A stretch of DNA of 54,037 nucleotides from an uncultured Candidatus Saccharibacteria bacterium (GTDB taxonomy: Bacteria > Patescibacteriota > Minisyncoccia > Phycocordibacterales > PALSA-1337). The notes under the pieces were generated by a model, which was given only the letters and a program-made list of their open reading frames with translations, was not told where the DNA came from and ran no database searches. The DNA is taken from assembly GCA_964576745.1 (NCBI GenBank), contig CAZNUY010000003.1:1-54037 (forward strand). The letters run 5' to 3'. This document shows positions 1,835-41,894 of this stretch, one piece after another; the first letter of the stretch is position 1, and each line of letters starts with the position of its first letter. A program made the translations under genes and the position numbers.

Positions 1835-1886
1835 ACTCGCGTCTCAACCTTGGGAAGGTCGCATTCTACCACTAAACCATACCCGC
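1816..1886 (-). tRNA. tRNA-Gly (anticodon CCC)
   Basis: Reverse complement reads GCGGGTA..TAGTGGTAGAAT..CGACC-TTCCCAA-GGTTG..GCGAGTTCGATTCTCGC-TACCCGC-A. The cloverleaf arms pair. CCA is not encoded. Confidence 0.9.
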
Positions 1887-6210: not shown

Positions 6211-8667
6211 TTATTTTTTCTCTTTTACTGGAAGACCGGTACGCTTTTCTGGTGTTGACGCTGGAATCTTCTCATCGTTGAAGATCGATCTGCCACTTCG
6301 CAAATTTGATAGAATAAGAGCTACTTCTTCGTTATTTTCGTTTGTCTTTTGTAGATCTTCAAAAACCTCTATTGCTTTGTCGAAATCGCGCAATCTAGCA
6401 AAAGACAATCCTAGGAAGTACTTTGCATTGGCATAATCTGCCTGATACTTGATCGCTTCAATGAATGCTTGAGATGCTCCGTTGTAATCCTTTGCGTAAT
6501 ACCTAAGAAGTCCCAATTGGAATAACAAAACTGGATTCTGTGGATTGAGTTGCACAGCAATACCAGCTGCAATAACTGCATTTTGAAGATCTCCTTTGGT
6601 TGCATATATTTGCGAAAGCAAAAATACTGCATCTAGATAATTGTTTTTAACCTGAAGTGCCCTACCAAGATCCTTTATTGCATCATCATACTTACCATTC
6701 TTTGCTTCAAAATTTGCCAAATTCAAATATAGTGATGGATTGTACGGATTGAGGCTAATTGCGCTGTTATACGAAGCCAAAGCATTTTCATAACCATTTT
6801 GCATTTTTATACTTGCAGCCACCTCAGCAACTCTCGCTTCAGAAAGATAGTTATAATAATTTTTTGGATTGTATGCAGTTGCCTTTTTTGCATCAGCAAT
6901 ACCACGATTGAGTACATTATTGATGTCCGTAAGAATTGCTTGAGTAGTTGATGCGCTCGTCGTATTTGTAATTGTACTAGCCAACTTTTGAGCTGTAGCA
7001 ATAGAAATCTCAGCTTTGGATCTCCAATATACATCTGACTCATTGAGCTTGAGAGCAGTTGTGAATGCTTGATCTGCTTTTTCGAGATTTTGGTTTGTCT
7101 CGAATTCGCTAAGTCCGCGAGCAAAATAAGTAAATGCAAATATCTTCTTTATGTGCATAAGTCCAAAAATAATGAGAACTAGAATGACAACTGATACAAT
7201 CGAAGGGAATAATTTGGAGACTAATGTCCCTGATGATGGAATATATACTCTCTGATTTACAAGTCCATATGCGACACTTAGACTCACAAATAATGCAGTG
7301 ACGACAAAAGTTAACAAAATTATTGCGTGCGTTGGAATTGTGACAAATAACATCAACCAAAGGAATGTCATCATTGTAAATGAAGACAATAACATGTATC
7401 TCTTTTCAGAATCATCTGGTAATTTTTTTAGAATTCGTGTTGATAAGATTCCTAAAAATACAAACAAAAGTATCCACAATATTGTACCAACAGTACCATG
7501 AGAGGCTATGAAAGTAGGGACAAATCCAATACCGTACTGAAACTCTGTTCCCCAAGCATTTGTAGTGTTGATAATAAGTGGCTTGTAAGCCTGATATGCG
7601 TCAGAAAATCCGTTTGATCCGACTCCAAATAGAGGATAATTTTGCAAAACAGATGAAGTAACATTTAGGGTCGTTTGCCAAGGCAAGAATATTTCGAAAT
7701 GGGCTATCTTTAGTTTTGTCACGACTGAATCAAGAGTCGTAGGTCCACGATAAACTAATAGGGATAAAATTACAAAAGCAACAACAGGAAGAAGTGGTAA
7801 TGATTTTATGACTCTTTTTGTAAGTCCAATATTTTGACTAGATGTTTTATTCCATTTTTCAGAAAACAGAATTATGGATAAACCGAGAAATACGATAGCC
7901 CCAACATACCAAACTCTAATATCAGCGACGAAAATAATCCCCAAAGTTGAGATTGTGGTCAGTGTCCAGAAAATTATTTTCATCTTTTTTGATAATTGGA
8001 GAAAATTCAATCCAAACAAAGAAATGATGAGAATGAGGGTTGAGAATATTGCCAAACTATACCAACTACCCAGCATAGAAGACGTCAGGGTGGTAAAGAT
8101 ACCAAAGCTCAAGAATGTCTCACCAAAGACGACCCTCAAAAAGTGGAATAAAAATAGAACCAAGTATGACGAGACCATAGCAAAATACAAGACTATAGCT
8201 CGCTCTCGCTGTTTTTGAATCAAGTTATATGTTACAAAACCAGATAAAAACAGAGTTAACAAAAAGCCAGTAGTCAATACTTCGAAGGCCTGACCAAAGA
8301 ATGATTTTGCAAAGTGGAGACTGAGAGTCGAAGATATAACAATAGAAACAAGAAGCAGAACACTTGTTCTACACAATGATGTTGGTGGCAAAGAAATCTT
8401 TCTTTCTTTGAGAACAACAAAAGTTAAGAAGACTGCTGAAGCAATAACTCCTATATTGATCACGAGAGACTTTATCAATTCTAATGGTATATACTTACTA
8501 AACCAAAAAGATAATGGTGCTAGAATAATCGTAACAAGGAGAATATAAAAAGCGATATTATCTAGCTTGCCAGAATCAGACTTCACGGATGAGCTATTAG
8601 AAACTCCCATACCCGATCCATCTTTAACTCCAAAACTACTGTATTTATTTTCCAGTTCATTATTCAT
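6211..8667 (-). CDS. polytopic membrane protein, O-antigen ligase/Wzy-like core with C-terminal TPR repeats
   Basis: 818-aa ORF. About 500 aa of TM helices are followed by repeated TPR-like A..Y..A..L.P.N units. Confidence 0.55.
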   Translation of the reverse strand: MNNELENKYSSFGVKDGSGMGVSNSSSVKSDSGKLDNIAFYILLVTIILAPLSFWFSKYIPLELIKSLVINIGVIASAVFLTFVVLKERKISLPPTSLCRTSVLLLVSIVISSTLSLHFAKSFFGQAFEVLTTGFLLTLFLSGFVTYNLIQKQRERAIVLYFAMVSSYLVLFLFHFLRVVFGETFLSFGIFTTLTSSMLGSWYSLAIFSTLILIISLFGLNFLQLSKKMKIIFWTLTTISTLGIIFVADIRVWYVGAIVFLGLSIILFSEKWNKTSSQNIGLTKRVIKSLPLLPVVAFVILSLLVYRGPTTLDSVVTKLKIAHFEIFLPWQTTLNVTSSVLQNYPLFGVGSNGFSDAYQAYKPLIINTTNAWGTEFQYGIGFVPTFIASHGTVGTILWILLFVFLGILSTRILKKLPDDSEKRYMLLSSFTMMTFLWLMLFVTIPTHAIILLTFVVTALFVSLSVAYGLVNQRVYIPSSGTLVSKLFPSIVSVVILVLIIFGLMHIKKIFAFTYFARGLSEFETNQNLEKADQAFTTALKLNESDVYWRSKAEISIATAQKLASTITNTTSASTTQAILTDINNVLNRGIADAKKATAYNPKNYYNYLSEARVAEVAASIKMQNGYENALASYNSAISLNPYNPSLYLNLANFEAKNGKYDDAIKDLGRALQVKNNYLDAVFLLSQIYATKGDLQNAVIAAGIAVQLNPQNPVLLFQLGLLRYYAKDYNGASQAFIEAIKYQADYANAKYFLGLSFARLRDFDKAIEVFEDLQKTNENNEEVALILSNLRSGRSIFNDEKIPASTPEKRTGLPVKEKK

Positions 8668-17657: not shown

Positions 17658-17677
17658 AGAATGAATGCTACCACTCG

Positions 17678-17700
17678 TTCACCACATTCACAATATTCAC
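17678..17700 (+). repeat. three TTCAC iterons at exact 9-bp spacing
   Basis: TTCAC at 17678, 17687 and 17696, immediately left of the junction copy at 17703. Confidence 0.7.
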
Positions 17701-17702
17701 AA

Positions 17703-17753
17703 TGTGACCCAACGGCCAAGTAGGTCGATATGCCTATTTAGGAGTCGACCTCG
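17703..17753. repeat. interrupted copy of the island-left junction (tgtgaccc.acgg + 25-nt insert + ggagtcgacctcg)
   Basis: Matches 18329-18353 (tgtgaccctacggggagtcgacctcg), including the island-specific cctcg that is absent from the tRNA. Confidence 0.65.
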
Positions 17754-17781
17754 ACTTCTGCCTTTATTGAATTTTTCTGAA

Positions 17782-18309
17782 TCACTTATGTGCAACAAAA
17801 ATTCCTTCAATATTTTCCAGCATTGTCTTATAAGAATCTTCATCAAAGCTGGTCCAAAATCCTATGAATTTACCATTATTAACTTTTTTACGAGGTAACC
17901 TTCCAGCAACAATATAATAACTTAATTTTTCAAGAACTTTTTTGTCTTCGTTGTTTATACTAATATCTTTCAAGTCTTCGAGCATTGAAATCAAATTATG
18001 ATGTGAATATTTTCCTGGTATGCACAACTCATCATTTTTACAAGTTATATTACCTTGACTAACCAACAAACCTTTAAGTAAGCACTCTATCGTCATACCT
18101 CGAAGCATCATGATCGTAGTCATGTAATCATTACATCCAATCTCTGCATTATTTTTCAAGTTCATCACTGATAACCAATTATCCGTTTCCAATTTTTCAT
18201 AAGCTTTCTTAAGCCTATCGGAATATGTTTGCCAAAGATTTAAATCTAAGACAATTTCGCAAAATTTTTTTGTGGAATCTTTATGATTCATTCTTTTTTT
18301 TAAGTACAA
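17782..18309 (-). CDS. hypothetical protein (weak HEPN-like helical pattern, not assignable)
   Basis: 175-aa ORF lying between the two junction copies. Confidence 0.45.
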   Translation of the reverse strand: MYLKKRMNHKDSTKKFCEIVLDLNLWQTYSDRLKKAYEKLETDNWLSVMNLKNNAEIGCNDYMTTIMMLRGMTIECLLKGLLVSQGNITCKNDELCIPGKYSHHNLISMLEDLKDISINNEDKKVLEKLSYYIVAGRLPRKKVNNGKFIGFWTSFDEDSYKTMLENIEGIFVAHK

Positions 18310-18326
18310 GATCTTAATTTCTAATT

Positions 18327-18348
18327 TTGTGACCCTACGGGGAGTCGA
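18327..18348. repeat. distal att-like direct repeat (copy of tRNA-Glu 3' end)
   Basis: Identical to 36710-36731. Confidence 0.85.
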
Positions 18349-18500
18349 CCTCGCCTCTCACTCGCTACCCGCTCGTTCGGGCTGGTCACCGGCTCGGCTG
18401 TTTCGCTTGCTAGCGAAACATGCCTCCGCCGTTCGCCTCCCCGACGCTCGCGCGCAGGCGCGAGCTTAGGCTCACACTCGCTACGCTCGTGTGACCTATT
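18349..18500. other. G+C-rich ORF-less structured module with a split reverse complement of the tRNA-Glu 3' end around a GCAG-loop hairpin
   Basis: ttcgcctccccg (18432-18443), AC, hairpin gctcgcgc-GCAG-gcgcgagc (18446-18465), T, taggctcaca (18467-18476), then the degenerate target gtgtgaccta (18489-18498). Confidence 0.6.
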
Positions 18501-18584
18501 AGCTTGGCTTTCAGAACTTACTAAACAAAGAGATTATATCAATTTGGCTCTAACTAATCTATCAGGTATTCTTGCTGAATAAAG

Positions 18585-18606
18585 TTCACGACGTTCACAC
18601 GTTCAC
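18585..18606 (+). repeat. three TTCAC iterons (spacing 9 and 8 bp)
   Basis: TTCAC at 18585, 18594 and 18602. Confidence 0.6.
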
Positions 18607-19109
18607 TCTATTTTTCTCCTATCTTTGTTTTTCTTTCTTTCCTCTCTTCGGATTCGTCTCTCTTCAGCTTTTTTCTCTTCTGCCTCTTTTCGAGCCTTCA
18701 TCTCTTCAGGAGTGACTACTCGCATATAATTCATGATCTTATAACCCTTTAAGTGCTCGAATGGATCAACGAATCTGTACCACTTTTCCATATGGGTATA
18801 ATCCTTTCCATCTTTTTCTCTCGTCTTAACCGAGTGAGATTTCAATAAATCTTTTGGTGGTAAAAAGTCCTTGTTGTCTTCAATGAGAAAGAGTTGTGCG
18901 TGAGTGCCCTTACCGTAGTAACTTATAGTTCGAGCTTTGAGAATACCTTCTTTAACCCATCTTCGAATGGTAACTGCCTTGAGCTCAAAGTTATATTCCA
19001 AATCAAATTCGCTATACCAACTATCCTTATCCTTTGCGAGAGAAGCTGGAATCTCTCCTTCATCAATTGCTTTCTGACAAACAAGACACTTTATTCCATA
19101 TTCGTCATA
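18603..19109 (-). CDS. HTH (excisionase/MerR-like) DNA-binding segment with Lys/Arg/Glu-rich tail; same frame as 19110..19952 and separated from it only by TAG
   Basis: Motif AVTIRRWVKEGILKA. The frame is open from 19109 down to TGA at 18603. The ORF track starts at a TTG at 19001, and no ATG lies upstream. Confidence 0.5.
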   Translation of the reverse strand, partial: YDEYGIKCLVCQKAIDEGEIPASLAKDKDSWYSEFDLEYNFELKAVTIRRWVKEGILKARTISYYGKGTHAQLFLIEDNKDFLPPKDLLKSHSVKTREKDGKDYTHMEKWYRFVDPFEHLKGYKIMNYMRVVTPEEMKARKEAEEKKAEERRIRREERKKNKDRRKIE

Positions 19110-19952
19110 CTAATTGTCACCTTCATTCATAATAGAGTGACCGCAAATAAAACAACGATAACCACGACCTTCGAGATGGAACCCTTTAGGGTTAGCCTTT
19201 AATTTCTCCTGAAGTATTTTTTCTTTCTCCTCCCATTCTTTCACAATTTTCCCCATGTTTTCCAATCTCCATTTTTGATCCCGATATTCGGCACCTTGTT
19301 CATCTGTTAGACAGAAACGATCCCGATCCTTAGCAAAATCAGCATCAAATTCATCATCCTTTTCTTTTGCGTGTCTCCATTCGTATTCATCAGTTTCTGT
19401 GTAGCCACATTTCGGGCAAGAGTTAGTTGTTATAACCTTTTTATCATCATCTTTTCTCCTTGTTTCGAGAGGAGTGCTGCAATGCAGACATAGTATGGGT
19501 TTAACTCTCCACTCTTCACCATCTGAAAAGAAAGCTCTGCGAGGAAGACATTTATTTGGGCAGTCATACATAAATAAAACACGATCAGGTTTTTCAAGAT
19601 CGGTCCAAAGGTCTTTGAATGTCACCTTCATTCTATTTCGGCATGTAAGGCAACGAATATCTTCTGGTGCTTGAGCTGAAGCGTAAAAATCATCTCTCTG
19701 CTTATCTTTATCCATCCATTCCTGAATAGTTTTATTTCTATTTAAATATCTTTCTCCCTTCGTAATATTAAGAGATAGTTTTTTAGCATAAGCTTCAGCA
19801 GCAGCTGCATCTTCTTCACTAATTGAGCCATCTTCAGGAAGAGGCTTTTTTGATTCCGTAAAGAATTTTTCTATACGCCGACACTCTTCTACAGTGTGTC
19901 TGTCATAGAGATCGGAATAATATTGTTTAGATTTAAGATGTGGTTCTGACAT
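19110..19952 (-). CDS. multi-zinc-ribbon protein (three CxxC...CxxC units, the last one completed only downstream of its TAG stop)
   Basis: 280-aa ORF; CLTCRNRM..CPNKC, CLHCSTP..CPKCG, CFICGHS then TAG. Confidence 0.6.
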   Translation of the reverse strand: MSEPHLKSKQYYSDLYDRHTVEECRRIEKFFTESKKPLPEDGSISEEDAAAAEAYAKKLSLNITKGERYLNRNKTIQEWMDKDKQRDDFYASAQAPEDIRCLTCRNRMKVTFKDLWTDLEKPDRVLFMYDCPNKCLPRRAFFSDGEEWRVKPILCLHCSTPLETRRKDDDKKVITTNSCPKCGYTETDEYEWRHAKEKDDEFDADFAKDRDRFCLTDEQGAEYRDQKWRLENMGKIVKEWEEKEKILQEKLKANPKGFHLEGRGYRCFICGHSIMNEGDN

Positions 19953-19957
19953 AGAAT

Positions 19958-22810
19958 TTATTCATCTTCTTGTTCTTTTTTCAGCATTTTCCTCTTCTCC
20001 AATTCTGCCTGATGTTCTTTCTCACTAGCTGCTATCATCTGTTTTAAGATAGTCACTGTTTCGGCAATAAATCTCTGACCTTTCTTTGAGCTAGTATTGT
20101 TAGCAAGAGCCTCTATTTCATTCACCTTGGCTTGCCATGCCTTACCAAAAAGATTTTCGCCAGCTGGGCCACTTACTGATCCAACATTTGTAAGATACCC
20201 TTTAAGAGTTCGTATGAGGTCTTTGTCATCTGTGATTTCAACTAGCCTGAGACAAAATTGAATATCAATGGAATCAAATTTCGGTAGTAATTCAATAGCT
20301 TCTGCAATTTGTTTTTTCTTACCACTCAACACGAGATCGTAGATAATTTCTTGAGCAATAGAAGGTGCAAACGAATCCAGAAGGCTGGAAAGGTTGTAGC
20401 TAAAGACAGAAATCTTTCCTAAATGCTTTTTACTCCAAACTTTTACTATTTCTTTTACTTTGTCAGTATTCTTTTCAAAGAGTGGTTTAAGTTCGTCTGC
20501 GTGTCTCGGAATAGCCTGATAATAGTGACCTAATTCAAAGGTTTTTGAGGATTTCTGTTTTTCAAGCATTCTTCGGTAGAGGACATCCATAAATAGCTCA
20601 AAATCAACTTCCCCTAAGGCAATTAAAATTTCAGTACCGTGGTGTTCTAAGGAAGAGACCTTTACTAATAGACCAGCAAAATGTTCTAAATCCACTTTTG
20701 GCCAGTCGGATAATGAGAGCATTCCGTCTCTTAAAGCAAAATCTATGGTCATCAAATTTAAAATAACCTGGTCTGGATAATTTTTCAGTAACTCAAGAAA
20801 AATCTTTCGACATTTTCCGGGGTCTAAGGCTGATATTCTGAAAACCCCATATAGGACATAGTAAAAATTTGGATATTTTAAGGGGAGCGCTTCAAAATCA
20901 AATTTATCCTTTCTAAATATAATATTTTCAAGAATTGAAATGTCTTCAGGAGAAACTTTGTCTACATTTCCTTTATCTAAATATATAAAGGAGGCAGCGA
21001 TAGCGACTGCAAAGTCAGGCTGCTTCTTGTGTGATAGAAAATCGATAACCGAATCTAGGATTGCACGATTGCCGCTATTTCTAATTCCACCTATGAGCTC
21101 TGCCAATTTTGTAGATAAAGGCAGATTACTTTGGACCGACTGCTCGATTAGTTTTTTTGCTACATTAGGTTTAGTTTTACCTACATCAACTAGAAAAGTC
21201 TTAAAATTGACGAGACCGTTTAATGGTTCCAACTCGCTCATTTTTGCAACATCAGACAAATCTTTCAGGTACTTTTTCAGATTCCCTTCCGAAATTGTTT
21301 GTACATGCTTGTCTATGGCTTCTTTCCATTCTCGATCTACTGTTTGATAGTCGTCTTCGTCTCGCAATTGAAAAGCTTGGCCGATGAGAAGACGATATAA
21401 ACCATATATTCCTTTATCATTTTGAAGTCTTTCTAAAAGCTTTCCAACTGGTGGAACGCTACCGCCATGAACCCTCTTCATCCAACCGAGCTGCTGCTCT
21501 AGCTTTAAGACAATTGGAGATTCAACAATAATTTTATTATCTTCGAGGATAATATTTGTAATTTCTTTGATGAAAAATCTCACATCACCTTCAATCATTT
21601 TCTGCGCTTTTTCTTTTTGTTCATCAGGACCAATTTCATGAGATACATGAGTAGAGTGCAGTATTATCTCTAAAATCTTCAGTTTATCCTGAACCTTAGC
21701 TATCTTGAACATAGAGATAAGTTCAATAACCACTTTTCTTCTAAATTTTGCTAAGTAGGGACTTGCATTTAGTGGTCCTCGGTGGAAAACCATCGTAATA
21801 TCATCTCTCATTGAAGTCCCATCATATGAAGGTTCAAGTAAAGATTCGTAAACAATTTTTAGGGTATCAATGTTGCTGATCTTTTCCTTGATGTCATGGG
21901 TTTCCAGAAAAGCATGCACAGCTTCTTGAGGACCATATCCCAAAGAAATTAACGCATGGTAATTATATGCGGCAACATGCTTCATTTTCTCAATAAGTAC
22001 ACTCTGAATGTTTTTATTAATTTCTATTTTGGAAAAAGAATATAAAAGATTAAAAACCTCCTTTGGCTCGAAGTATCGAATTACATCAAGAGCTTCTATG
22101 TATACTTTAAGCACTCTCTCATTTGCTGGAGAATTGTTTGCTTCAGATAGTAACTTTTGTCCGATAGATAGAATATGTGGAACAACTAGATGTTCACCTT
22201 TAACAGAACGATAATGAGCTAATTTCTCAAGGGTTTTTATTCTTTCAATTAGCACTTCTGGAGCAAGATAACCAACATCTTTTTGGTCAGCAAGTAAATC
22301 CTTTATAAGATGATCGTTCGTTTTATTGAAATGATGATTACATATGTCTTTCCACTCCTTGAGATAAGAATCGTCACCCTTCTTTATAATATTTTTCCTA
22401 TTAAAATATAATCTCTTTTCAGCAGGAACATTGCTTTTACCTAATATAGTTGCAGCTGTCTCTTTGCTTAAATAAAGCCAATACGCTACTTGTTCCGTAG
22501 GGTCAACTGCAATAAATAAAAGTGGTAAGTTGGAGGAAGCTGCATAAGCTAGCAGTTTGGATGGACATAATGAGAATGGGGCTTTAGTTTTCTTGGCATA
22601 GGAAAGCGGCTTGATTTGCACTTCCAAATTCAAACCAGTTGTTTCTCTTTTTGAGTTGAGGAGTTGTAAGTGTCCATCTGTATCCGGATATGTATCATCT
22701 CCCGATGTGAGCTTTTCTATTAACTTGTCAGATAAAATCTGCTTGAGAACGCCAATTTCCTGTTTTTCTATTGCTTTGCTTTTTGAGTAAACTGAGCGTT
22801 TGATTGCCAT
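19958..22810 (-). CDS. 950-aa protein: N-terminal DUF4365-like PD-(D/E)xK nuclease fold plus about 800-aa alpha-helical repeat region
   Basis: YPDTDGHLQL ... LEVQIKPLS ... PLLFIAVDPTEQVAYWLYL pattern. The rest is helical with no recognisable motif. Confidence 0.55.
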   Translation of the reverse strand: MAIKRSVYSKSKAIEKQEIGVLKQILSDKLIEKLTSGDDTYPDTDGHLQLLNSKRETTGLNLEVQIKPLSYAKKTKAPFSLCPSKLLAYAASSNLPLLFIAVDPTEQVAYWLYLSKETAATILGKSNVPAEKRLYFNRKNIIKKGDDSYLKEWKDICNHHFNKTNDHLIKDLLADQKDVGYLAPEVLIERIKTLEKLAHYRSVKGEHLVVPHILSIGQKLLSEANNSPANERVLKVYIEALDVIRYFEPKEVFNLLYSFSKIEINKNIQSVLIEKMKHVAAYNYHALISLGYGPQEAVHAFLETHDIKEKISNIDTLKIVYESLLEPSYDGTSMRDDITMVFHRGPLNASPYLAKFRRKVVIELISMFKIAKVQDKLKILEIILHSTHVSHEIGPDEQKEKAQKMIEGDVRFFIKEITNIILEDNKIIVESPIVLKLEQQLGWMKRVHGGSVPPVGKLLERLQNDKGIYGLYRLLIGQAFQLRDEDDYQTVDREWKEAIDKHVQTISEGNLKKYLKDLSDVAKMSELEPLNGLVNFKTFLVDVGKTKPNVAKKLIEQSVQSNLPLSTKLAELIGGIRNSGNRAILDSVIDFLSHKKQPDFAVAIAASFIYLDKGNVDKVSPEDISILENIIFRKDKFDFEALPLKYPNFYYVLYGVFRISALDPGKCRKIFLELLKNYPDQVILNLMTIDFALRDGMLSLSDWPKVDLEHFAGLLVKVSSLEHHGTEILIALGEVDFELFMDVLYRRMLEKQKSSKTFELGHYYQAIPRHADELKPLFEKNTDKVKEIVKVWSKKHLGKISVFSYNLSSLLDSFAPSIAQEIIYDLVLSGKKKQIAEAIELLPKFDSIDIQFCLRLVEITDDKDLIRTLKGYLTNVGSVSGPAGENLFGKAWQAKVNEIEALANNTSSKKGQRFIAETVTILKQMIAASEKEHQAELEKRKMLKKEQEDE

Positions 22811-22887
22811 ACATTATTTTTACATATACATTCATAGTCTTAGTTAAAGCGGATTTTAGCATTTTTTAGGCTTAAAATAAAGAAAAA

Positions 22888-22917
22888 TCGCACCTGCTGC
22901 CGAAGCTACAGGTGCGA
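22888..22917 (-). terminator. intrinsic terminator after purM (symmetric hairpin with A/T runs on both sides)
   Basis: tcgcacctg ... caggtgcga form a 9-bp stem, flanked by aaaaa and attttt. Confidence 0.6.
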
Positions 22918-22942
22918 GTATTTTTCAGGAACTTGTTCGAAC

Positions 22943-24046
22943 TCATCGAACCGCCAGCGTCTCGCCCGCGTACTCGAGACCTTTCGGCTTGATGACGACT
23001 TTCTTGTCGCCGTTCTCGATGTGCCCGGCAGCCAGAGCCTTGAGGCCGAGCTGTTGCGTCACCCCGAGAACTTTCTCGACGTCGGCTTCCGCCACGTAGA
23101 GCGCAAACCCTGCGCCCATGTTCAGGTTGCCGTAGGCTTCCTGATCATCGACCGGTCCATGCTCCTGGATGAAGCTGAAGATCGGAAGCTGCGTCGGAAG
23201 CGTGTCGATCATGTAGGCGAAAGGCTGCGTTGCCCGCATGAGCTTGCGCCAGCCGTGGCCGGTGACGTTCACCGCGTAGTGAATATCAACGCCTGCATCG
23301 AGGCAGTCTTCGACGAGGCCGACGTAAATGTGTGTCGGATCGAGAAGTGCTTCGCCGTAGCTTCGGCCGTCAGAGAGTTTCGTGAGATACCCGTCCGGCA
23401 GCTTATCGGCAATCTTGCGCGCGAGCGTGAGCCCGTTCGCATGGATACCCGAGCTTTCGACAATCACGATCATGTCGCCGTGAGCGATCTTACCGATGAT
23501 CAGACGCTCCTTCGGCTTCACGATTCCAATCGCGGAACCGGAGAGCACAACGGCTTCCGGAACCACGACACCCTTGAGAGTCGGCGTTTCGCCTCCGCCC
23601 CAAGTGCAGCGGGCCAAGTCGCAGGCTTTCTTCCAGCCGTTGACCAGATCGCGGGTGCGGTTCTCGTCATTGAACCAGTCTGAGACGCCGACTGCGAGAT
23701 GCATGGCGACCGAGAGAGGCAATGCGCCGAGTGTCACCAGGTCATTCACGATCATGGCGACCGTGCACTGAGCGACATGGTCGTAATACGATTTGCCGGT
23801 GAGGGCATACATCGCGTCCGCGACCAGGTTCTTGGTGCCGAGGCCTTCCTCCACATGAGCGAAGTAACTTTTAGCCGCTTCGATCAGGTAGGCGCTTTCG
23901 CCTCGTGAGGGTTCGAACTCCCGGAACTCGCCGCCATTGAGACGAGCGATGTTGCCAGCTGTTTCTCGCGCAGCAAGCTGCGCCATCCGTTTGAATGGGT
24001 CCATGGCATCGTAATTGACACCGGTACCCGCGTAGGTCATGTTCAT
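22943..24046 (-). CDS. purM: AIR synthase (PurM) family, phosphoribosylformylglycinamidine cyclo-ligase-like
   Basis: 367-aa G+C-rich ORF; EEGLGTKN (DGVGTK-like) and PurM-type N- and C-terminal domain layout. It is a divergent subtype. Confidence 0.7.
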   Translation of the reverse strand: MNMTYAGTGVNYDAMDPFKRMAQLAARETAGNIARLNGGEFREFEPSRGESAYLIEAAKSYFAHVEEGLGTKNLVADAMYALTGKSYYDHVAQCTVAMIVNDLVTLGALPLSVAMHLAVGVSDWFNDENRTRDLVNGWKKACDLARCTWGGGETPTLKGVVVPEAVVLSGSAIGIVKPKERLIIGKIAHGDMIVIVESSGIHANGLTLARKIADKLPDGYLTKLSDGRSYGEALLDPTHIYVGLVEDCLDAGVDIHYAVNVTGHGWRKLMRATQPFAYMIDTLPTQLPIFSFIQEHGPVDDQEAYGNLNMGAGFALYVAEADVEKVLGVTQQLGLKALAAGHIENGDKKVVIKPKGLEYAGETLAVR

Positions 24047-24090
24047 GTGTTGCTCCTTTTCTTTTGTGAAATGTTCAGATGCTGAACGTG

Positions 24091-24118
24091 ATATTACTTA
24101 AAATTTGACAAAAAGCAA
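24091..24118 (-). promoter_or_regulatory. sigma-70-like promoter of purM (TTGCTT, 16 nt, TAATAT)
   Basis: Plus strand atatta at 24091-24096 and aagcaa at 24113-24118. The whole module is nearly identical to the one upstream of purD. Confidence 0.55.
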
Positions 24119-24129
24119 ATAAAATAGGC

Positions 24130-24150
24130 CTACGATTTTTTAGGTCGTAG
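24130..24150 (-). terminator. weak hairpin terminator after purD
   Basis: ctacga/tcgtag stem with an A/T-rich loop and flank. Confidence 0.3.
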
Positions 24151-24177
24151 ACCATTTTGAGTTGGAGCAACACAACT

Positions 24178-25494
24178 TCATACTCCGAGAGACTTCGCGC
24201 CGATGTCCTTGCGATAATGCGCTCCTTCGAAATGAATGCACTCGACTCCGTTGTAAGCGTGATCGAGAGCTTCCTGAAGAGTTGCACCGAGTGCGGTGAC
24301 ACCGAGAACACGACCACCGGCAGTGACGAGCTGGCCATCAGCCTGTTTGGTCCCTGCATGGAACACGACGACGCCCGGAAGAATCTCGGCGTTATCGATG
24401 CCTGTGATCGGCAAACCTTTCTTGTAGTCGGGCGACGGATAGCCGCCAGACGCCATCACGATGCAGGCAGCGAAGCCGGGGTTCCACTCGACGTTAATCT
24501 CATGGAGCCGTCCATCAGCACATGCCTCGAAGATGTCGAGCAGATCAGTTTTCAGAAGTCGCATGTAAACCTGGGTCTCCGGATCACCGAATCGGGCGTT
24601 GAACTCGAGCACCGACAGGTCCCATTCGGGAACTGCTGGTGGATCGTTTCTCCGGACTTTGAGTCCCGGATAGAGTAAGCCAACAAACGGCGAGCCTTTT
24701 CCACGAAGACCTTCGAGGATCGGACCGACAATCTGTTCACCTGCAGCATCGTGGCTCACGAACCACGGCACCGGAGCAATCGTTCCCATTCCGCCGGTAT
24801 TCGAACCCTTGTCGCCGTCGAAGACAGGCTTATGGTCCTGAGCCGAGGGAAACATCTTGAACGACTTACCGTCGCAGAAGGCGTGGATTGAAACTTCTTG
24901 TCCTCCAGCGAACTCCTCGACAATGACTTCATCGCCGGCGCTTCCATGGAGCTTCTTGACCATGATCTCATCGAGAGCTTGTTCGGCTTCTGCGAGATCG
25001 TGGCAGACGTATGCCCCCTTTCCGAGAGCGAGACCCGATGCCTTCACCACGATCGGCAAACCTTGGTAGGCCGCGAAGTGGCGTCGGACATGTTCGAGTG
25101 CCTGCGTATGGTCAGTGTAAACATCGAAGTGCGAGGTTGGCACGCCTGAATCTTTCATGAGGCGTTTCGAGAACACCTTCGATGCTTCGATCTGCGCTGC
25201 GGCTTTGCTCGGACCGAAGATCTTCAGTCCTTTTGCCTGGAACGCATCAACGATGCCGAGCGCCAGCGGATCATCCTGACCCACAATGGTGAAATCAATT
25301 CCTTCCTTGAGTGCGAAGGCCAAGAGACCGTCCACATCCGTCGCTTTCACTGGGACGTTTTCTGCGATCTGTGCCGTGCCAGCATTGCCGGGGGCAACGT
25401 AGAGTTTTCCGAGACGTGGCGACTGATGAAGCTTCCATCCAATGGAATGCTCACGACCGCCACCACCAACGAGTAGTACTTTCATCTGGTTCAT
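24178..25494 (-). CDS. purD: phosphoribosylamine-glycine ligase (GAR synthetase)
   Basis: 438-aa ORF; MKVLLVGGGGREHSIGWKL N-terminus and ATP-grasp layout. Confidence 0.9.
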   Translation of the reverse strand: MNQMKVLLVGGGGREHSIGWKLHQSPRLGKLYVAPGNAGTAQIAENVPVKATDVDGLLAFALKEGIDFTIVGQDDPLALGIVDAFQAKGLKIFGPSKAAAQIEASKVFSKRLMKDSGVPTSHFDVYTDHTQALEHVRRHFAAYQGLPIVVKASGLALGKGAYVCHDLAEAEQALDEIMVKKLHGSAGDEVIVEEFAGGQEVSIHAFCDGKSFKMFPSAQDHKPVFDGDKGSNTGGMGTIAPVPWFVSHDAAGEQIVGPILEGLRGKGSPFVGLLYPGLKVRRNDPPAVPEWDLSVLEFNARFGDPETQVYMRLLKTDLLDIFEACADGRLHEINVEWNPGFAACIVMASGGYPSPDYKKGLPITGIDNAEILPGVVVFHAGTKQADGQLVTAGGRVLGVTALGATLQEALDHAYNGVECIHFEGAHYRKDIGAKSLGV

Positions 25495-25542
25495 GACTTG
25501 GTTCTCCTTTTCTTTTGTTAGAGGTTCTGTGTTCTGAGGCTG

Positions 25543-25570
25543 ATATTACCTAAAATTTGACAAAAGGCAA
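25543..25570 (-). promoter_or_regulatory. sigma-70-like promoter of purD (TTGCCT, 16 nt, TAATAT)
   Basis: Plus strand atatta at 25543-25548 and aggcaa at 25565-25570. Confidence 0.55.
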
Positions 25571-25585
25571 TAAAAATTTGAAAAG

Positions 25586-25613
25586 TTGCAAAAAAGATAT
25601 TTTTAATTAATAT
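25586..25613 (+). promoter_or_regulatory. sigma-70-like promoter of purN (TTGCAA, 16 nt, TAATAT), divergent from the purD promoter
   Basis: ttgcaa at 25586-25591 and taatat at 25608-25613; RBS taggagatagg before the ATG at 25653. Confidence 0.5.
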
Positions 25614-25652
25614 TCTTTTTAGATCATCAAACCAAATATAGGAGATAGGCAC

Positions 25653-26324
25653 ATGAGCAAATCGAAAGTTCTTGTCTTCGCGTCAGGGTCGGCTGAAGGT
25701 GGCGGATCGGGCTTTGAAAAGCTCATCCTTGCTTCCCGAGGTGGACCACTTGATGCAGACATCGTCGCAGTTGTTTCAAATCATGCAAACGGAGGAGTGC
25801 GTGCTCGGGCAGATAAGCTCGGCGTTCCCTTCCTCCACTTCCCGAAGCCATGGACCGCAGAAGCGTATCAAAAGTTCGCCTCCGAATCCGGTGCAGACTT
25901 CTTTGCGCTCTCCGGCTGGCTGAAATTGGTGACCGGACTCGATCCGGTTACCCGATTCAATTCACGGACTGTCTTCAACATTCATCCCGGACCACTTCCG
26001 GACTTTGGTGGTCCGGGACTGTATGGGCATCATGTCCACGAAGCAGTCATCGCAGCTTTCGGCCGGCGCGAGATCACACACTCGGCTGTTTCGATGCATT
26101 TCGTCACCGGCGAATATGATCGCGGACCGGTTTTCTTCCGGTGCAACGTCAAAATCAACGGAGACGATACAGCCGACACGATTGGCACCCGGGTCAATCA
26201 GCAGGAGCATATCCATCAGCCGAAAATCACCAGCATGGTGGTAAACGGTCTGATCAAGTGGGATGGAATCAATCCCGATTCGCTCCAAGTTCCGGAAGGA
26301 TACTCGGTCGAATGCTTCGCCTGA
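25653..26324 (+). CDS. purN: phosphoribosylglycinamide formyltransferase
   Basis: 223-aa ORF; VLVFASGS...NIHPGPLPDFGG formyltransferase motifs. Confidence 0.85.
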   Translation: MSKSKVLVFASGSAEGGGSGFEKLILASRGGPLDADIVAVVSNHANGGVRARADKLGVPFLHFPKPWTAEAYQKFASESGADFFALSGWLKLVTGLDPVTRFNSRTVFNIHPGPLPDFGGPGLYGHHVHEAVIAAFGRREITHSAVSMHFVTGEYDRGPVFFRCNVKINGDDTADTIGTRVNQQEHIHQPKITSMVVNGLIKWDGINPDSLQVPEGYSVECFA

Positions 26325-26345
26325 TTTACGCGCATGCGCATCATC

Positions 26346-26380
26346 ATGAGCGGTTCTGAAAAACGGACCGCTCATTTTTT
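26346..26380 (+). terminator. intrinsic terminator after purN
   Basis: tgagcggt / accgctca form an 8-bp stem followed by tttttta. Confidence 0.6.
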
Positions 26381-26402
26381 ATTTGAAATTAAGCAATTTT
26401 TG

Positions 26403-26430
26403 TTGCTTAAAGTCTAATTTTGAGTAATAT
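26403..26430 (+). promoter_or_regulatory. sigma-70-like promoter of purL (TTGCTT, 16 nt, TAATAT)
   Basis: ttgctt at 26403-26408 and taatat at 26425-26430. Confidence 0.5.
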
Positions 26431-26506
26431 GACGACTAGATAGCACCTCTCGGAGGTGCATTGTTTTTTGTCATCCCAAACGTAAACAACAAAAGAAGGA
26501 GAAGCC

Positions 26507-29500
26507 ATGATCTATCGCATGTATCGCCAGATGGACAGCGGCCTAGAACTTGGTTTCTACGTCGAAACCACTGGCCAGCTGTCCGAGCCGGAGCTTCAAC
26601 AGCTCCAATGGCTCATCGCAGAAACGTTCGAGCCGGCAAAGACCGGACTTGAACCCAGCCTCACAGCAGACGTTGTCGAGATTGGACCCAGGCTCTCGAT
26701 CGAGACTCCGTTCTCATCGAATGCCGTCTCTATCTGCCAGGCCATGGGGCTCGGCAGAATCACGCGCATCGAGCGCACGCATCGCTACGCCGGCAACGGC
26801 AGCTCGGACCACATTCTCAAGACTCGTCTTGATCGGATGACCGAGCAGCACTACCCCAGCGGGATCGAGACCTTTGACACCGGCGTCTCGCCGGATGATG
26901 TCCGAGTGATCGATCTCATTGGCCGCGGAAAGGCAGCTCTCGAGGAGATGAACAGCGCACTTGGCCTCGGCATGGATGCCAGAGACCTCGAGTACTATCA
27001 GCATCTCTTTGCGGAAGTCCTGAAAAGGAATCCGACCGACGTCGAACTATTCCAGCTGGGCAATGCCAACAGCGAGCACAGCCGGCACTGGTACTTCAAA
27101 GGTCAGATCGTCATCGACGGAACGCCGATGCAGGAGACTCTGTTCGAGATCGTTCAGCGACCGCTGAAAAATCTCGGCAGCGAAAACTGCAGCCTCGTTG
27201 CCTTCAGGGACAACGCCGGTGTGATCCAGGGATTTGGCACGCGTCTTATCCTTCCGGTCACGCCGGGCAAGCCTTCGGAAATGCGGCTCATGGAAAAGGT
27301 GATTCACATCACCTGCACCGCTGAGACGCACAACCATCCCACGTTCGTCGCACCGTTCCCCGGAGCTCAGACAGGAGCCGGCGGTCGGATACGCGACAAC
27401 AGCGCAGTCGGACGCGGCGGTATCGTCGGCATCGGTGTCGCCGGTTACTTTGTCGGAAACCTTTTCATTCCGGGTCACGAGATTCCTGGAGAGGCTATCG
27501 GCAAGGATAAGCCGTCGAAGTACGCTTCGCCGCTTTCGATCTTGATCGAGGGCAGCAACGGCGTGTCGAGCTACGGCAACCAGTTCGGCGAGCCTCTCAC
27601 ACTCGGCTTCACCAGAACCTACGGTCAGATGATCGGCAAAGAATGGCGCGAGCCACGCAAGCCGATTCTCTACAGCGGTGGCGTCGGGCATCTGTTCGAC
27701 GGGCATACTGCGAAGGAGACATCTGAAGTTGGAATGCTCATCGTGCGCATCGGCGGTCCTGCCTATCCCATCGGGGTCGGCGGCGGCTCAGCCTCAAGCA
27801 TGATGCAGGGCCAGAACACCGAGACGCTTGATTTCAACTCCGTTCAACGCGGTAACGCAGAGATGGAGAATCGTGCGAACCGAGTCATTCGGGCCTGTGT
27901 TGAGATGGGAGACAGCAATCCCATTTCGAGCATTCACGATCAAGGCGCTGGTGGTCCGAGTAATGTCCTTACGGAGTTGCTTGAGCCACTTGGTGGCAAG
28001 ATCAGCATTCGCGGTATCGTACTTGGTGACAAGACGATGTCCGTCCTCAAAATCTGGAGCGCCGAATTCCAAGAAGGATACGGACTCCTGATCAGGCCGG
28101 AGCAGATCGAGCTTTTCAAGTCGATCTGCAAGCGCGAGCGCGTCAACTGCGAAGTCCTCGGAGAAATCGACGGAAGCGGAAACGTTGTCGTTGAAGACTC
28201 CCTCAACGGGACAACGCCCGTAAGTCTCAACCTGGAGCAGATTCTCACGAACATGCCCCAGAAGACGTTCGAGTCAAATCGGCGGACCGAAGGCCTCAAG
28301 CCTCTGGACCTGCCGGACGTCACAGTCGCCGAAGCGCTTGAAAAAGTGTTCAGGCTTCCCAGCGTCGGCTCGAAAGGGTTCCTCGTTCACAAGGTGGACC
28401 GAAGCGTCACTGGGCTTGTATCGCAGCAGCAATGCTGCGGGATCGCCCAGATTCCAATCGCCAATGTAAGCGTGAATGCTCAGAGCCATTTCGGTTTGAG
28501 CGGAAGCGCCTCTGCAGTCGGCGAACAGCCAGTGAAGATGTTGATCGATCCGAAAGCTGGAGCTCGAATGGCGGTGGCAGAAATGTTCACCAACATGGCC
28601 TCGGCGCGGATCAGCGGTATCGGAGACATTCGATGCCGTGCAAACTGGATGTGGCCTGCGAAGTTACCACACGAAGGTGCCTTACTCTATGACGCTGCGG
28701 TTGCTATGTCTGACCTCATGGTTGGGCTCGGCATCGCAGTCGATGGCGGAAAGGACAGCCTTTCGATGGCTGCGACGATTTCGGGAGAGCTCGTAAAGGC
28801 TCCCGGAAGTTTGGTGATTCTCGGATACGCACCCGTGTCTGACATTACCAAGAAGGTCACGCCGGACATCAAAAAGCCCGGCGCTAGCAGTCTCGCATTG
28901 ATCGATCTTGGTCAGGGCAAAAATCGCCTCGGCGGTTCAGCTCTGGCTCAGGCATTCAACCAGCTCGGCGATAAGTCGCCTGACGTTGAAAATCCCAAGC
29001 TCCTCAAGAACGCGTTTCTTGCGGTGCAGCAGATGATCGGCGAAGGGTTGATTCTGTCTCTGCATGATCGAAGCGACGGCGGCCTCATAACCGCAGTAGC
29101 TGAGATGTGCATGGCGAGCCGGTGCGGATTCAATGTGAGCATCCCTCACGCTGCAGAAGCTCTGGCCGTCCTCTTTGGCGAGGAACCCGGGTTCGTTATT
29201 GAACTCGAGACTGTAAACGAAAAGCGGATTGTTGAAATCTGCGAATCGTTCGAAGTGCCGATCTCCACGATCGGTATCACCCTCGACAGCACATCATGCG
29301 TCGTCGATGCAAAAGATGCCGGAGAACTGTTCAGAAGTACTGTGATGGAACTCCGGAGCTGGTGGGAAGCCACAAGCGCCAAGATCGAAGAGCTGCAGAT
29401 GAACTCTGCGTGTGCCGAAGAAGAATACTCTGGTCACGAGGACCAGCTTCCCGGCATCGGTACGGCTCCGTCGTATCAGCTCTCATTCGCTCCAGTGGAA

Positions 29501-30331: not shown

Positions 30332-30354
30332 GGATATGTTCCAAAGCCAATCCT

Positions 30355-30392
30355 GACCCCTTGCGTAGCAATGCGCGAGGGGTCTTTTATTT
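30355..30392 (+). terminator. intrinsic terminator after purL
   Basis: gaccccttgcg / cgcgaggggtc form an 11-bp stem (one G-U pair) followed by ttttattt. Confidence 0.65.
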
Positions 30393-30416
30393 AGATTCAA
30401 TTATATTAAAGCGACA

Positions 30417-30430
30417 TTCACAACATTCAC
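30417..30430 (+). repeat. two TTCAC iterons, 9-bp spacing
   Basis: TTCAC at 30417 and 30426. Confidence 0.6.
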
Positions 30431-30559
30431 AGTACATGGGGAAATTTAGGGAAAAAAGTGCCAAAAAGGAGCTCTTTTTCGCTCTATTTGGCCTAGGAGT
30501 GCACCTATTTTCACCTTTTTGCACTAGCGATTTGGAAAATTGCTGATGTTGCTATAACA

Positions 30560-30582
30560 TTCACAATATTCACGATGTTCAC
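30560..30582 (+). repeat. three TTCAC iterons, 9-bp spacing
   Basis: TTCAC at 30560, 30569 and 30578 (acattcaca atattcacg atgttcacg). Confidence 0.7.
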
Positions 30583-31813: not shown

Positions 31814-31874
31814 AGCAAGCTTAATCTTGCCGAAAGCCTGAAATCCCTTACAGCAGGGGCTTTTTTGTTATTGC

Positions 31875-31902
31875 TTTAAGAGCTATTTAAGCGTGCTTTA
31901 AG
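31875..31902 (+). promoter_or_regulatory. three TTTAAG direct repeats at 11-bp phasing, candidate operator upstream of 31964
   Basis: TTTAAG at 31875, 31886 and 31897. Confidence 0.35.
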
Positions 31903-31963
31903 TTTATCTCCGGACCTACGATGTAAGCAGATTTTTGCGAAATCTTTTATCAAAAATAATTAA

Positions 31964-32248
31964 ATGCTTATGAGAAAACATGTAACCAAGGTCCCGTTAG
32001 ATGACAATGAAAAATATCTGTCGAATGACATTGATGTAGCAGTAACGCTGCTATGCAAAGGCTATACCCTCGAAGATATTAAACTTCTTACCAATAAAAA
32101 GGCTACTTTCGTATTCAAAGATCATCCAGCTATTAAGGCTGCAGTTGATGGCTTTTGGAGTAACCGGATAGAAGTCCATCCTCTTGAGTTTGCGAATATT
32201 CGCAAGAACTTAAAATCACGCATTTACGCAATGCAGAAAGATTACTAA
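31964..32248 (+). CDS. DUF5659-like small protein
   Basis: 94-aa ORF. The pattern LLCKGYTL..I......ATFVF.D...I..AV..FW........P.EF.N..K.LKSRIY recalls DUF5659 (from memory). Confidence 0.5.
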   Translation: MLMRKHVTKVPLDDNEKYLSNDIDVAVTLLCKGYTLEDIKLLTNKKATFVFKDHPAIKAAVDGFWSNRIEVHPLEFANIRKNLKSRIYAMQKDY

Positions 32249-32263
32249 ACCAAATAAACAAAA

Positions 32264-33634: not shown

Positions 33635-33652
33635 AAACCTAACTTAAATTTT

Positions 33653-34177: not shown

Positions 34178-34222
34178 ATATGGAGAATCCTTAATGATTT
34201 CGGCAGAAATATTGAAATTGAT

Positions 34223-34798: not shown

Positions 34799-34802
34799 CA
34801 CT

Positions 34803-35045: not shown

Positions 35046-35048
35046 GTA

Positions 35049-41803: not shown

Positions 41804-41871
41804 GAAAAATTTATTGTTTTTTGATAATTATTTTATCTAGATTTTATCTCTGTCTGATATTATTGGCGTCA

Positions 41872-41888: not shown

Positions 41889-41894
41889 GAAAAA

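Follow-up and report, generated by a model that had tools for sequence, protein, structure and literature searches.

Two tRNA genes in a 54,037-nucleotide (nt) stretch of DNA from an uncultured Candidatus Saccharibacteria bacterium (contig CAZNUY010000003.1 of assembly GCA_964576745.1; the whole stretch is called the window below) are accompanied by short noncoding units that contain a hairpin-split copy of the 3' end of the respective tRNA. The unit of tRNA-Glu(ctc) (live gene at 36712-36784, minus strand) occupies segment 18349-18496 and is one member of a family of noncoding, highly structured insertion elements of 130 to 160 bp. Between this unit and its tRNA gene lies an 18.2-kb island (18497-36710), which is not part of the element. 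The second gene, tRNA-Gly(ccc) (1815-1886, minus strand), is the target and partner of a tandem pair of units located directly beside it.

The Glu unit was read on the plus strand, antisense to the tRNA gene. It is bordered on the left by the direct repeat DR1 (18328-18348; TGTGACCCTACGGGGAGTCGA), a displaced full copy of the tRNA-Glu 3' end that is identical to the 3' end of the live gene at 36711-36731 and whose identity to the gene breaks off in the T-loop (...TCGA|C). Two inner stem-loops follow. The first (18347-18387) has a GACC/GGTC stem that begins on the last two bases of DR1 and a loop with the motif CTCGCTACCCGCTCG; the second (18390-18431) folds as CGGC-tc-GGC-(GTTTCGCT TGCT AGCGAAAC)-GCC-tcc-GCCG, and its short stems covary, as judged by eye, in the related loci L059 and L061. 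The adjoining module consists of segment A (18432-18443; ttcgcctccccg, equal to TTCGCCTCCCCG), the dinucleotide AC (18444-18445), the hairpin stem-loop C (SL-C; 18446-18465, GCTCGCGC GCAG GCGCGAGC), a single T (18466), and segment B (18467-18476; TAGGCTCACA). A 12-nt apical spacer (18477-18488) with the recurrent loop motif CTCGCTACGCTCG and a G at 18489 complete the module side; this spacer is shared with locus L047, and related motifs were found in the Gly, L057, L068, L071, and L072 units.

Comparison of the module with tRNA-Glu revealed that segment A matches tRNA positions 54 to 65 at 11 of 12 positions, as a sense copy of the T-loop and the 3' strand of the T-stem, and that segment B matches the 3' strand of the acceptor stem, the discriminator base, and the bases that follow it at 9 of 10 positions. 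AC, SL-C, and T (18444-18466) are placed exactly at the 65/66 boundary, and SL-C splits the inverted copy of the tRNA 3' end precisely where T-stem and acceptor stem meet. The pairing partner of both segments is the 3' end of the live gene (36711-36731), which was formerly the right tip of the unit. To the right of the spacer only a remnant of the tRNA end is left (18489-18498; GTGTGACCTA). Its TGTGACC portion (18490-18496) is what remains of the tRNA 3'-end copy that once closed the Glu unit and completed tRNA-Glu. An initial annotation, made from the letters of the window alone, had located every part of this module exactly and had counted both matches correctly. It had taken the right-hand remnant for a degenerate copy of the target, although this is a stump severed by the insertion of the island. 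It had also called the two segments antisense, which needs correction. In sequence they are sense copies of the tRNA, located on the strand opposite to the gene, and thus complementary to the antisense strand of the tRNA gene; a transcript would carry them as antisense to the tRNA only if it were made in the same direction as the tRNA.

The Gly locus contains two 157-bp copies that are 100% identical (1507-1663 and 1664-1820, plus strand). Parsed as units, this repeat opens with a partial left repeat (1507-1520), has a tRNA-end copy in its interior (1658-1677), and closes with a unit that extends up to the start of the live tRNA 3' end (1815-1834). Each unit contains a stem-loop A (SL-A; GAGTC TTACA GACTC), the joiner GTAC, a stem-loop B (SL-B), segment A, AC-SL-C-T, segment B, and a spacer; no island is present. 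The first module (1591-1634, plus strand) reads TTCGATTCTCGC AC GCACGCCC GCAG GGGCGTGC T TACCCGCAC. The second (1748-1791, plus strand) is identical to the first, is complementary to the adjoining tRNA-Gly 3' end at 21 of 21 positions, and folds as DNA with a z score of -10.2. The Gly layout first described is thus present, in two copies, with a spacer that measures 23 nt (1792-1814) instead of about 19. The hairpin pattern ACGCNCGCNCGCAGGNGCGNGCT occurs three times in the window, compared to 0.00 matches expected from 100 shuffles.

Units at different tRNA genes

The layout N12-AC-hairpin-T-N9 was found in approximately 20 distinct units on Paceibacteria-type contigs (Patescibacteria), at no fewer than 11 tRNA identities. 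The host sites were Gly-ccc, Gly-tcc, Glu-ctc, Glu-ttc, Ser-gct, Arg-tct, Arg-cct, Leu-gag, Pro-cgg, Val-tac, and one decayed tRNA end. Scanning species-representative genomes yielded 54 matches, among which L009, L046, and L047 (Paceibacterota/Taylorbacteria-type contigs) were the only true relatives; the other 51 were chance matches in GC-rich genomes. A metagenome scan with a tighter pattern revealed ten more loci (L057-L061, L063, and L066-L069), and five of its matches (L055, L056, L062, L064, and L065) were rejected as false, their "stems" being unpaired. The relatives are without exception fragments from metagenomes. Approximately the first 14 units were collected with a pattern that fixes 21 module bases, including most of SL-C. 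Further units were found by synteny or inspection and not by the hairpin sequence, namely, two at tRNA-Val in L067, the distal one in L057, those at tRNA-Gly in L071 and L072, and those at tRNA-Glu in L075 to L077.

On the strand antisense to the tRNA, a unit consists of a displaced copy of the tRNA 3' end, SL-A, a joiner, SL-B, segment A, AC-SL-C-T, segment B, the apical spacer, and the 3' end of the live tRNA gene. The identity of the displaced copy to the gene ends in the T-loop at ...TCG|R. SL-A often has a 5-bp stem that begins on the last T-loop bases, and its loop is TTACA or CTACG. The joiner is GTAC, GTGA, or GTGC, and SL-B is a long stem with a variable tip. Segment A is 12 nt long and corresponds to tRNA positions 54 to 65, and segment B (approximately 9 nt) corresponds to the acceptor 3' strand from position 66 onwards. 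The apical spacer often has the form A-run, loop, T-run, with a recurrent loop motif resembling CTCRCTNCGYTCG. The live tRNA gene now owes its 3' end to the second tRNA 3'-end copy, at the right of the unit. An alternative scaffold ("type 2") takes the place of SL-A and SL-B in the Glu unit of the window, in L075, L059, and L061, and in one L066 unit; between the window and L075 it differs at one position over about 110 nt.

The orientation relative to the tRNA and the insertion point are constant in every unit seen, the split invariably lies at 65/66, and the junction bases AC and T are kept. In the six units found independently of the pattern (two at L067-Val, L057 distal, L071, L072, and L075), segment A is exactly 12 nt long and is followed by AC (TC once), a perfect stem of 8 to 9 bp, T, and segment B. 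These units have other stems and, in two cases, other loops (ATAG and TACCCA). The constant spacing noted initially for the Glu and Gly modules is therefore also kept in units to which the search pattern did not apply. Within 224 kb of related loci, AC-stem-GCAG-stem-T hairpins were confined to modules flanking tRNA genes.

To what extent the flanking segments follow their own tRNA was scored at those positions that differ among tRNAs, seven in segment A and seven in segment B, in an ungapped comparison. Across 11 tRNA identities the cognate tRNA was matched at 126 of 154 variable positions. Permuted tRNA assignments gave a mean of 74 and a maximum of 118, and none of 100,000 permutations reached 126. 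Segments A and B are each significant separately, with B less well kept; the A segment of L063 has a 1-nt deletion and scores lower when compared without gaps. The tracking of the cognate tRNA by the variable segments, first noticed for two tRNAs, extends in this way to at least 11.

The three hairpins showed compensatory base changes. In SL-A, 100% of the cells were paired, with 22 double-change cells; in SL-C, 95.8% were paired, and five pairs were changed on both sides. These changes bear out the early remark that the hairpin stems differ and yet stay paired. At the base of SL-B, 93% of the cells were paired, in stems picked by eye. None of 500 shuffles was as high in any of the three tests, for which the SL-A and SL-B stems had been extracted manually. 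When A, SL-C, B, the spacer, and the tRNA end were folded together with DNA parameters, a three-way junction was the minimum-energy fold in six units (z scores from -5.4 to -10.2). Among these six is the Glu unit, which was rejoined in silico to tRNA-Glu (z = -5.35). In this fold, A and B pair with the tRNA-end copy as helices of 12 bp and 6 to 9 bp, SL-C branches off between them, and the end of the 12-bp A helix coincides precisely with the junction between element and tRNA. The left copy or a target could take the place of this tRNA-end copy as the pairing partner of A and B.

A literature search revealed no relevant earlier description of tRNA-tracking, hairpin-split units, which does not prove that none exists. 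We regard the units as a previously undescribed family of tRNA-gene-specific insertion elements.

Gain and loss of units in close relatives

Relatives with tRNA-Gly(ccc) were ordered by the identity of their GAPDH to that of the window, and relatives with tRNA-Glu(ctc) were ordered by the identity of MurF. At tRNA-Gly(ccc), L073 and L074 (83%) lack a unit, L072 (85%) and L071 (91%) carry one unit each, and the window carries two identical units. The closest relative, L070 (95%), has the same left flank as the window and only GTAGCGAGAATCG, T7, and the tRNA. This site (3570-3600 in L070) comprises a 13-nt partial copy of the tRNA end, seven T's, and the tRNA, and it is not an empty site. A further GAPDH relative, L088, has no tRNA-Gly in the stretch that was read. 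At tRNA-Glu(ctc), the site of L078 (MurF, 82%) is empty, and L075, L076, and L077 (95%) carry one type-2 unit that directly adjoins the tRNA gene.

The arrays at one tRNA in L067-Val and in L057 mix different scaffolds and therefore reflect successive insertions and not local duplications. Single units can also be mosaics. Over the left 110 nt, the Glu unit of the window differs from that of L075 at one base, and the right part (SL-C, segment B, and spacer) is unrelated; this right part matches L047, whose left part differs. The breakpoint of the mosaic is segment A. The main differences between the units of L071 and L072 are three compensated pairs in SL-C. With 0, 1, or 2 copies at the same tRNA in close relatives, the units behave as mobile. 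Together, the data show a noncoding, target-specific, and structure-dependent mobile unit.

Proposed mechanism and alternative explanations

We tentatively read the units as mobile elements whose module is a cis-acting folded or guide site that acts in single-stranded DNA (probability roughly 0.45). A folded single-strand att substrate and a guide-like selection of the target had been among the functions suggested in the initial annotation, and they remain the best readings. The module would be the cis-acting fold-back or DNA guide of a non-autonomous element. In the single-stranded state, the segments on either side of a protein-bound SL-C would pair with the tRNA 3'-end sequence, and this pairing would set both the tip of the element and the insertion point, 3' of ...TCG in the T-loop of the target. 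A guide of about 21 nt, split around the hairpin, would thus pair with the antisense strand of the tRNA 3' end, and the cut would lie one 12-bp helix away. Segment A would pair with that part of T-loop and T-stem whose 3' end is the insertion point, and B would pair with the acceptor part next to it. After insertion, the tRNA gene would be rebuilt by the right tip of the element, which is itself a tRNA 3' end. A single module could for this reason recognize not only the left border and the right tip but also a new target. If the tip is selected for tRNA function and A and B are selected for pairing, the tip as well as the two segments would follow the tRNA, and retargeting would need only matched changes in guide and tip. 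The enzyme would act in trans and could be an HUH protein (RAYT/IS200-like) or another one. There is a substantial chance that this mechanism is new in kind.

The closest known parallel is provided by the IS200/IS605 family, including IS608 and the gene-less PATEs. These elements are likewise small, have subterminal hairpins, and include non-autonomous copies that are moved in trans by a Y1 HUH transposase. In IS608, a hairpin is held by the transposase, and the cleavage and target sites are read via guide bases located 5' of the hairpin foot and not by the protein (PMC3201880). In engineered IS608, a complementarity of 8 to 13 nt 3' of the hairpin directed integration at 12- to 17-nt targets, 3' of the paired sequence (PMC5934647). 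The arrangement of guide, hairpin, and guide opposite a nearly contiguous target corresponds to A, SL-C, and B opposite the tRNA end. The natural guides of IS200/IS605 elements comprise 4 nt, whereas those of the units would comprise 12 and 9 nt. In the units, moreover, both ends and the target could be served by a single module, the identity of right tip and target results in long repeats, and a perfectly palindromic hairpin branches from a three-way junction. They have no adjacent transposase.

A candidate for the enzyme acting in trans is encoded at 41895-42503 (plus strand), where an open reading frame (ORF) for a REP-associated, RAYT-like Y1 HUH transposase was found (Pfam Y1_Tnp, 30.1 bits with a cutoff of 23; NCBIfam REP_Tyr_transpos, 32.9 bits, which is under the cutoff of that model). 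It is the only recombinase gene in the window outside the island, and it is syntenic, next to mraZ, in L075 and L078, the two relatives whose loci cover this region. On either side of the gene are inverted REP-like palindromes of high GC content (41767-41894 and 42484-42526; CTGAGGCGCAACCTCAG / CTGAGGCTGCGCCTCAG), which are preceded by GTCA or GTGA and give the locus a REPtron-like appearance. The RAYT-like gene, the REP-like palindromes, and the small GTAG-hairpin insertions described in the last section make HUH-type single-strand chemistry plausible in these genomes. The stronger version of our reading, in which HUH enzymes and DNA guides would make the units natural DNA-guided, programmable single-strand transposons, nevertheless appears rather doubtful.

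Several observations weigh against the preferred reading. No enzyme gene is adjacent to the units, the RAYT-like gene occupies a conserved housekeeping position, and comparison of its palindromes with SL-C revealed no resemblance. IS200/IS605 elements have 4-nt guides, separate left and right hairpins, and no long repeats, and in the window, GC skew and the orientation of the genes suggest that the strand fitting the polarity of IS608 is the leading-strand template, opposite to the preference of IS608. The 20-nt repeats can be explained by a right tip that equals the target but equally by the crossover of an ordinary integrase within the T-loop. In perfect DNA palindromes, template switching can give rise to compensated changes in the absence of selection. 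The conservation of the SL-C sequence and of the GCAG loop is inflated in part by the way the units were ascertained, a bias for which the six independently found units correct. The L070 stump is not a clean excision product. Finally, scans of viral contigs revealed neither an autonomous or phage-borne relative of the units (the module pattern had 0 matches) nor an excised circle. The nine matches of the SL-A/GTAC pattern in viral contigs were all chance matches within coding sequence.

An explanation that we consider unlikely, but that accounts for the repeats equally well, is that the units are classical miniature integrative elements, either mobilizable in cis or "attP-only" remnants, which a tyrosine integrase recombines as double-stranded DNA with a crossover in the T-loop. 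The inverted, hairpin-split copy would then be an arm-type binding region, a structural accessory, or a feature without any role in the choice of target. The units do have tRNA 3'-end direct repeats that end in the T-loop, they regenerate the tRNA, and their size is similar to that of a phage attP with its arms. Their arrays seem to be extended by new insertions beside the tRNA. The repeats, the regeneration of the tRNA, and this mode of growth are all typical of integrative elements at tRNA genes, and tandem arrays flanked by tRNA genes are known, for example, from tycheposons (10.1101/2020.12.28.424599). Searching the window ORFs of at least 100 amino acids and the scanned neighboring ORFs revealed no tyrosine recombinase, however, and none was present in the units or arrays examined. 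Closely related scaffolds occur at different tRNAs, so that an integrase that reads sequence would have to accept many core sequences. Double-stranded binding sites do not account for the strict base-pair covariation of three hairpins or for the fixed distance of 12 nt between T-loop and SL-C.

Islands in tRNA genes, their integrase-less derivatives, and arrays of the tycheposon type (10.1101/2020.12.28.424599) resemble the units in their insertion into the 3' part of the gene, in the regeneration of the tRNA, in partial border repeats, and in tandem accretion. The units differ from them in being gene-less, only 130 to 160 bp long, and densely folded, with an inverted, hairpin-split copy of the target. 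Single-stranded recombination sites offer a further comparison. In integron attC sites and in the attP(+) site of CTX phage, a single strand of imperfect inverted repeats folds into a site that the recombinase reads by shape. As in these systems, the units are small and arranged in arrays with the newest member at a fixed site, and their sequence varies while their structure is kept. No recombinase of the IntI or Xer type was found among the scanned ORFs of the window, the units have no GTTRRRY or dif-like core, their fixed site is the tRNA T-loop, with the junction at ...TCG|R, and their arms copy the tRNA end and carry a branching hairpin in place of extrahelical bases. The units do not qualify as integron attC sites.

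It is quite unlikely that the units represent a structured RNA gene or a cis-acting RNA, such as a 3' trailer that would bind the 3' half of the tRNA and control its maturation or an antisense or tRNA-minihelix-like RNA transcribed from the opposite strand, whose spread to different tRNAs would be secondary. The strong conserved folds, the covariation, the conserved loop and junction bases (TTACA, GTAC, GCAG, and AC/T), the high GC content within an AT-rich genome, and the position immediately downstream of tRNA genes all agree with an RNA. Only 2 of 189 cells were G:U, however, and the two strands have equal numbers of G:U pairs (24 versus 25); neither the folding energy nor the G:U counts favor a strand. 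Searches of the window and ten loci with Rfam 15 at gathering scores, and permissive searches of both modules, revealed no family for the units. The only real Rfam matches were tRNAs and RNase P, and weak matches within units had E values of 0.12 or more. ARAGORN predicted no gene within the units. Scans for terminators were uninformative except in L046, where tRNA-Ser and the module have between them a hairpin on the tRNA strand that resembles a terminator; by eye, the A-run/hairpin/T-run spacers of L061, L069, and L075 are similar to it. Because this hairpin lies between tRNA and module, sequestration of the tRNA 3' half in a precursor, a third function suggested initially, is disfavored. 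No promoter-like sites were found, which is weak evidence since the scan was not tuned to this phylum. The presence of 0 to 2 copies at the same tRNA in nearly identical genomes would also be odd for a maturation device. Taken together, the scarcity of G:U pairs, their equal number per strand, the terminator-like hairpin in L046, and the missing RNA family match make it more likely that the folding nucleic acid is DNA rather than RNA.

Two related candidates were tried and rejected. A tRNA-like or permuted tRNA gene with SL-A as the anticodon arm forms no cloverleaf, is negative with ARAGORN and Rfam, and would have varying loop types. A primer-binding site of the retroviral type was rejected because the module copies the gene, including bases past the discriminator, and not a CCA-tailed tRNA. 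Element-borne nucleic acid guides are also known from the bridge (seek) RNAs of IS110/IS1111 elements, which have bipartite guides in a structured scaffold, and from the homing guides of CRISPR-associated transposons, and their targets include tRNA genes. Those guides are RNAs with adjacent DEDD recombinases or Cas effectors, neither of which is present here, whereas both segments of the units pair with one strand and nothing points to an RNA.

Very little favors the view that the units are not mobile and are functionless by-products of local duplication and of template switching at quasi-palindromes, or decayed tandem att sites. Template switching can create and homogenize inverted repeats, and tRNA 3' ends are hot spots that accumulate several elements, as in the DR0/DR1/DR2 series of the window. 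However, different genomes have the same scaffold (SL-A, GTAC, SL-B, and AC-SL-C-T) at tRNAs that are unrelated, the position of the split is invariably 65/66 with AC and T conserved, different scaffolds are present within one array, and the mosaic units already suggest that the phylogeny of the scaffolds is incongruent with those of hosts and tRNAs.

If the preferred reading is correct, the units would be the smallest known site-specific mobile elements that bear their own long nucleic acid "address" of the target, and they would be a natural counterpart of the engineered long-guide IS608. One scaffold redirected to at least 11 tRNA genes would represent a ready experiment on how target specificity is encoded and changed, and the units would be candidates for a programmable DNA insertion system that is compact and protein-light. 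Independently of the mechanism, the family accounts for a class of intergenic blocks beside tRNA genes of Patescibacteria that are rich in GC and strongly folded and that would otherwise be annotated as island ends, att sites, or small RNAs of unknown kind.

The serine recombinase island and other inserts

The module lies at the far end of the 18.2-kb island, at whose other end a large serine recombinase is encoded beside tRNA-Glu (35049-36773, plus strand), but the resulting proposal that the module is the guide or att component of this island and marks its distal end can be dismissed, since L075, L076, and L077 carry the same unit and the Gly sites carry theirs without an island, since the 7-nt junction of the island and of related islets (TGTGACC|) is their own and lies outside the module, and since tblastn with the recombinase at the 13 other module loci first collected found no homologue, the sole match being the tRNA-antisense tail at the L066 tRNA-Glu. 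The scanned neighboring ORFs at these 13 loci also contained no integrase domain. The association with serine recombinases and the membership in the island that the initial annotation had envisaged are contradicted by these results.

Sequence comparison suggests how the present arrangement arose. In L075 and L077, the sequence leads from MurF and tRNA-Glu via the unit and one small islet straight to the genes found at 14.5 to 16.4 kb of the window, and the intervening 20 kb are absent. The island junction TGTGACC|C is present at 18490-18496 and 36711-36717, where the right end abuts TGTGACC|CTACGG in the tRNA. The left end, TGTGACC|TA...GCTTTCAGAACTT...AGAGATTATAT (from 18490), recurs at islets in L075, L066, and L047 (in the form TGTGACC|TA..TTTCAGAACTT). 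Since the relatives L075 and L077 have no island and the island has its own TGTGACC junction, the island is a later entry than the unit, inserted, as its junctions indicate, at the extreme 3' end of tRNA-Glu between the older unit and the gene. Large serine recombinase att sites span about 25 to 30 bp on either side of the crossover dinucleotide. Segment A and SL-C are located 25 to 65 bp from the island junction and are absent at other junctions of the same islet family, so neither their position nor the co-occurrence of a recombinase identifies the module as part of such a site; the junction is a conventional site that excludes the module, an outcome that the initial annotation itself had listed as refuting its reading. 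The island and the small TGTGACC-bounded islets are of the ordinary tRNA-gene island kind.

The serine recombinase ORF crosses the junction between island and tRNA, and the antisense strand of tRNA-Glu encodes about 20 residues at its C-terminal end; in L090, a different ORF reads into tRNA-Glu likewise. The cargo at 22943-30331 comprises a purM-like gene, purD, a purN-like gene, and a single-chain purL of 1,274 amino acids. Its GC content is 51 to 60%, compared to about 38% for the genome, and it represents foreign purine biosynthesis cargo within a Patescibacteria-type genome.

To the left of the Glu unit, an islet (approximately 17753-18327) is flanked by DR1 and by DR0 (17703-17752, plus strand). 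DR0 consists of an older copy of the tRNA-Glu 3' end and the first unit bases (GGAGTCGACCTCG), is interrupted by a 25-nt GTAG-hairpin insertion, and is orthologous to the left repeat of L075. The islet contains one ORF (17782-18309, minus strand) with weak HEPN/RnlA-like matches. Both borders of the islet are copies of the tRNA-Glu end joined to the initial unit bases, so that a displaced unit repeat can in its turn be an insertion site. Iteron-like runs of (G/A)TTCAC with a spacing of about 10 bp are found at the tRNA-proximal ends of islets and inside the island (17676-17702, 18583-18606, 30549-30582, and 31519-31552; approximately 7228-7262 in L066) and are candidate binding sites for an island-encoded protein.

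The GTAG-hairpin insertions are 17 to 25 nt long, start with CC(C/A)AGTAGG, and contain a small REP-like hairpin (GTAG plus a palindrome). They are located at 17716-17740 of the window, at about 250-274 of L071 (minus-strand view), and at about 9606-9622 of L075. One of them splits DR0 and its orthologue in L075, and a related one follows TTAC in the SL-A loop of the Gly unit of L071. They may be a second, even smaller, mobile hairpin element. In REP/BIME systems with RAYT proteins, a domesticated Y1 HUH enzyme acts on GC-rich palindromes, which it processes in the form of single-stranded hairpins (PMC8266576). The RAYT-like gene of the window with its palindromes and the GTAG-hairpin insertions within loops and repeats of the units resemble these systems. 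The units themselves do not belong to them, as SL-C is preceded by NNAC and not by GTAG, and the units are present only at tRNA 3' ends instead of being dispersed between genes. At least three independent kinds of inserts thus gather at tRNA 3' ends of these reduced genomes: the mini-units, the TGTGACC islets together with the serine recombinase islands, and the GTAG-hairpin insertions.

Apart from the tRNA genes, the window contains two long palindromic elements of about 130 to 140 bp (2506-2643 and 48444-48571), with arms of 39 to 40 nt that are 85 to 90% complementary. They are 84% complementary to each other over 92 nt and resemble a miniature inverted-repeat element unrelated to the tRNA units. 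In L061, a partial duplicate of a tRNA 3' half that extends into the anticodon loop was found beside tRNA-Ile(tat) (8183-8228); it has no module and is the footprint of a different type of integration, in the anticodon loop.

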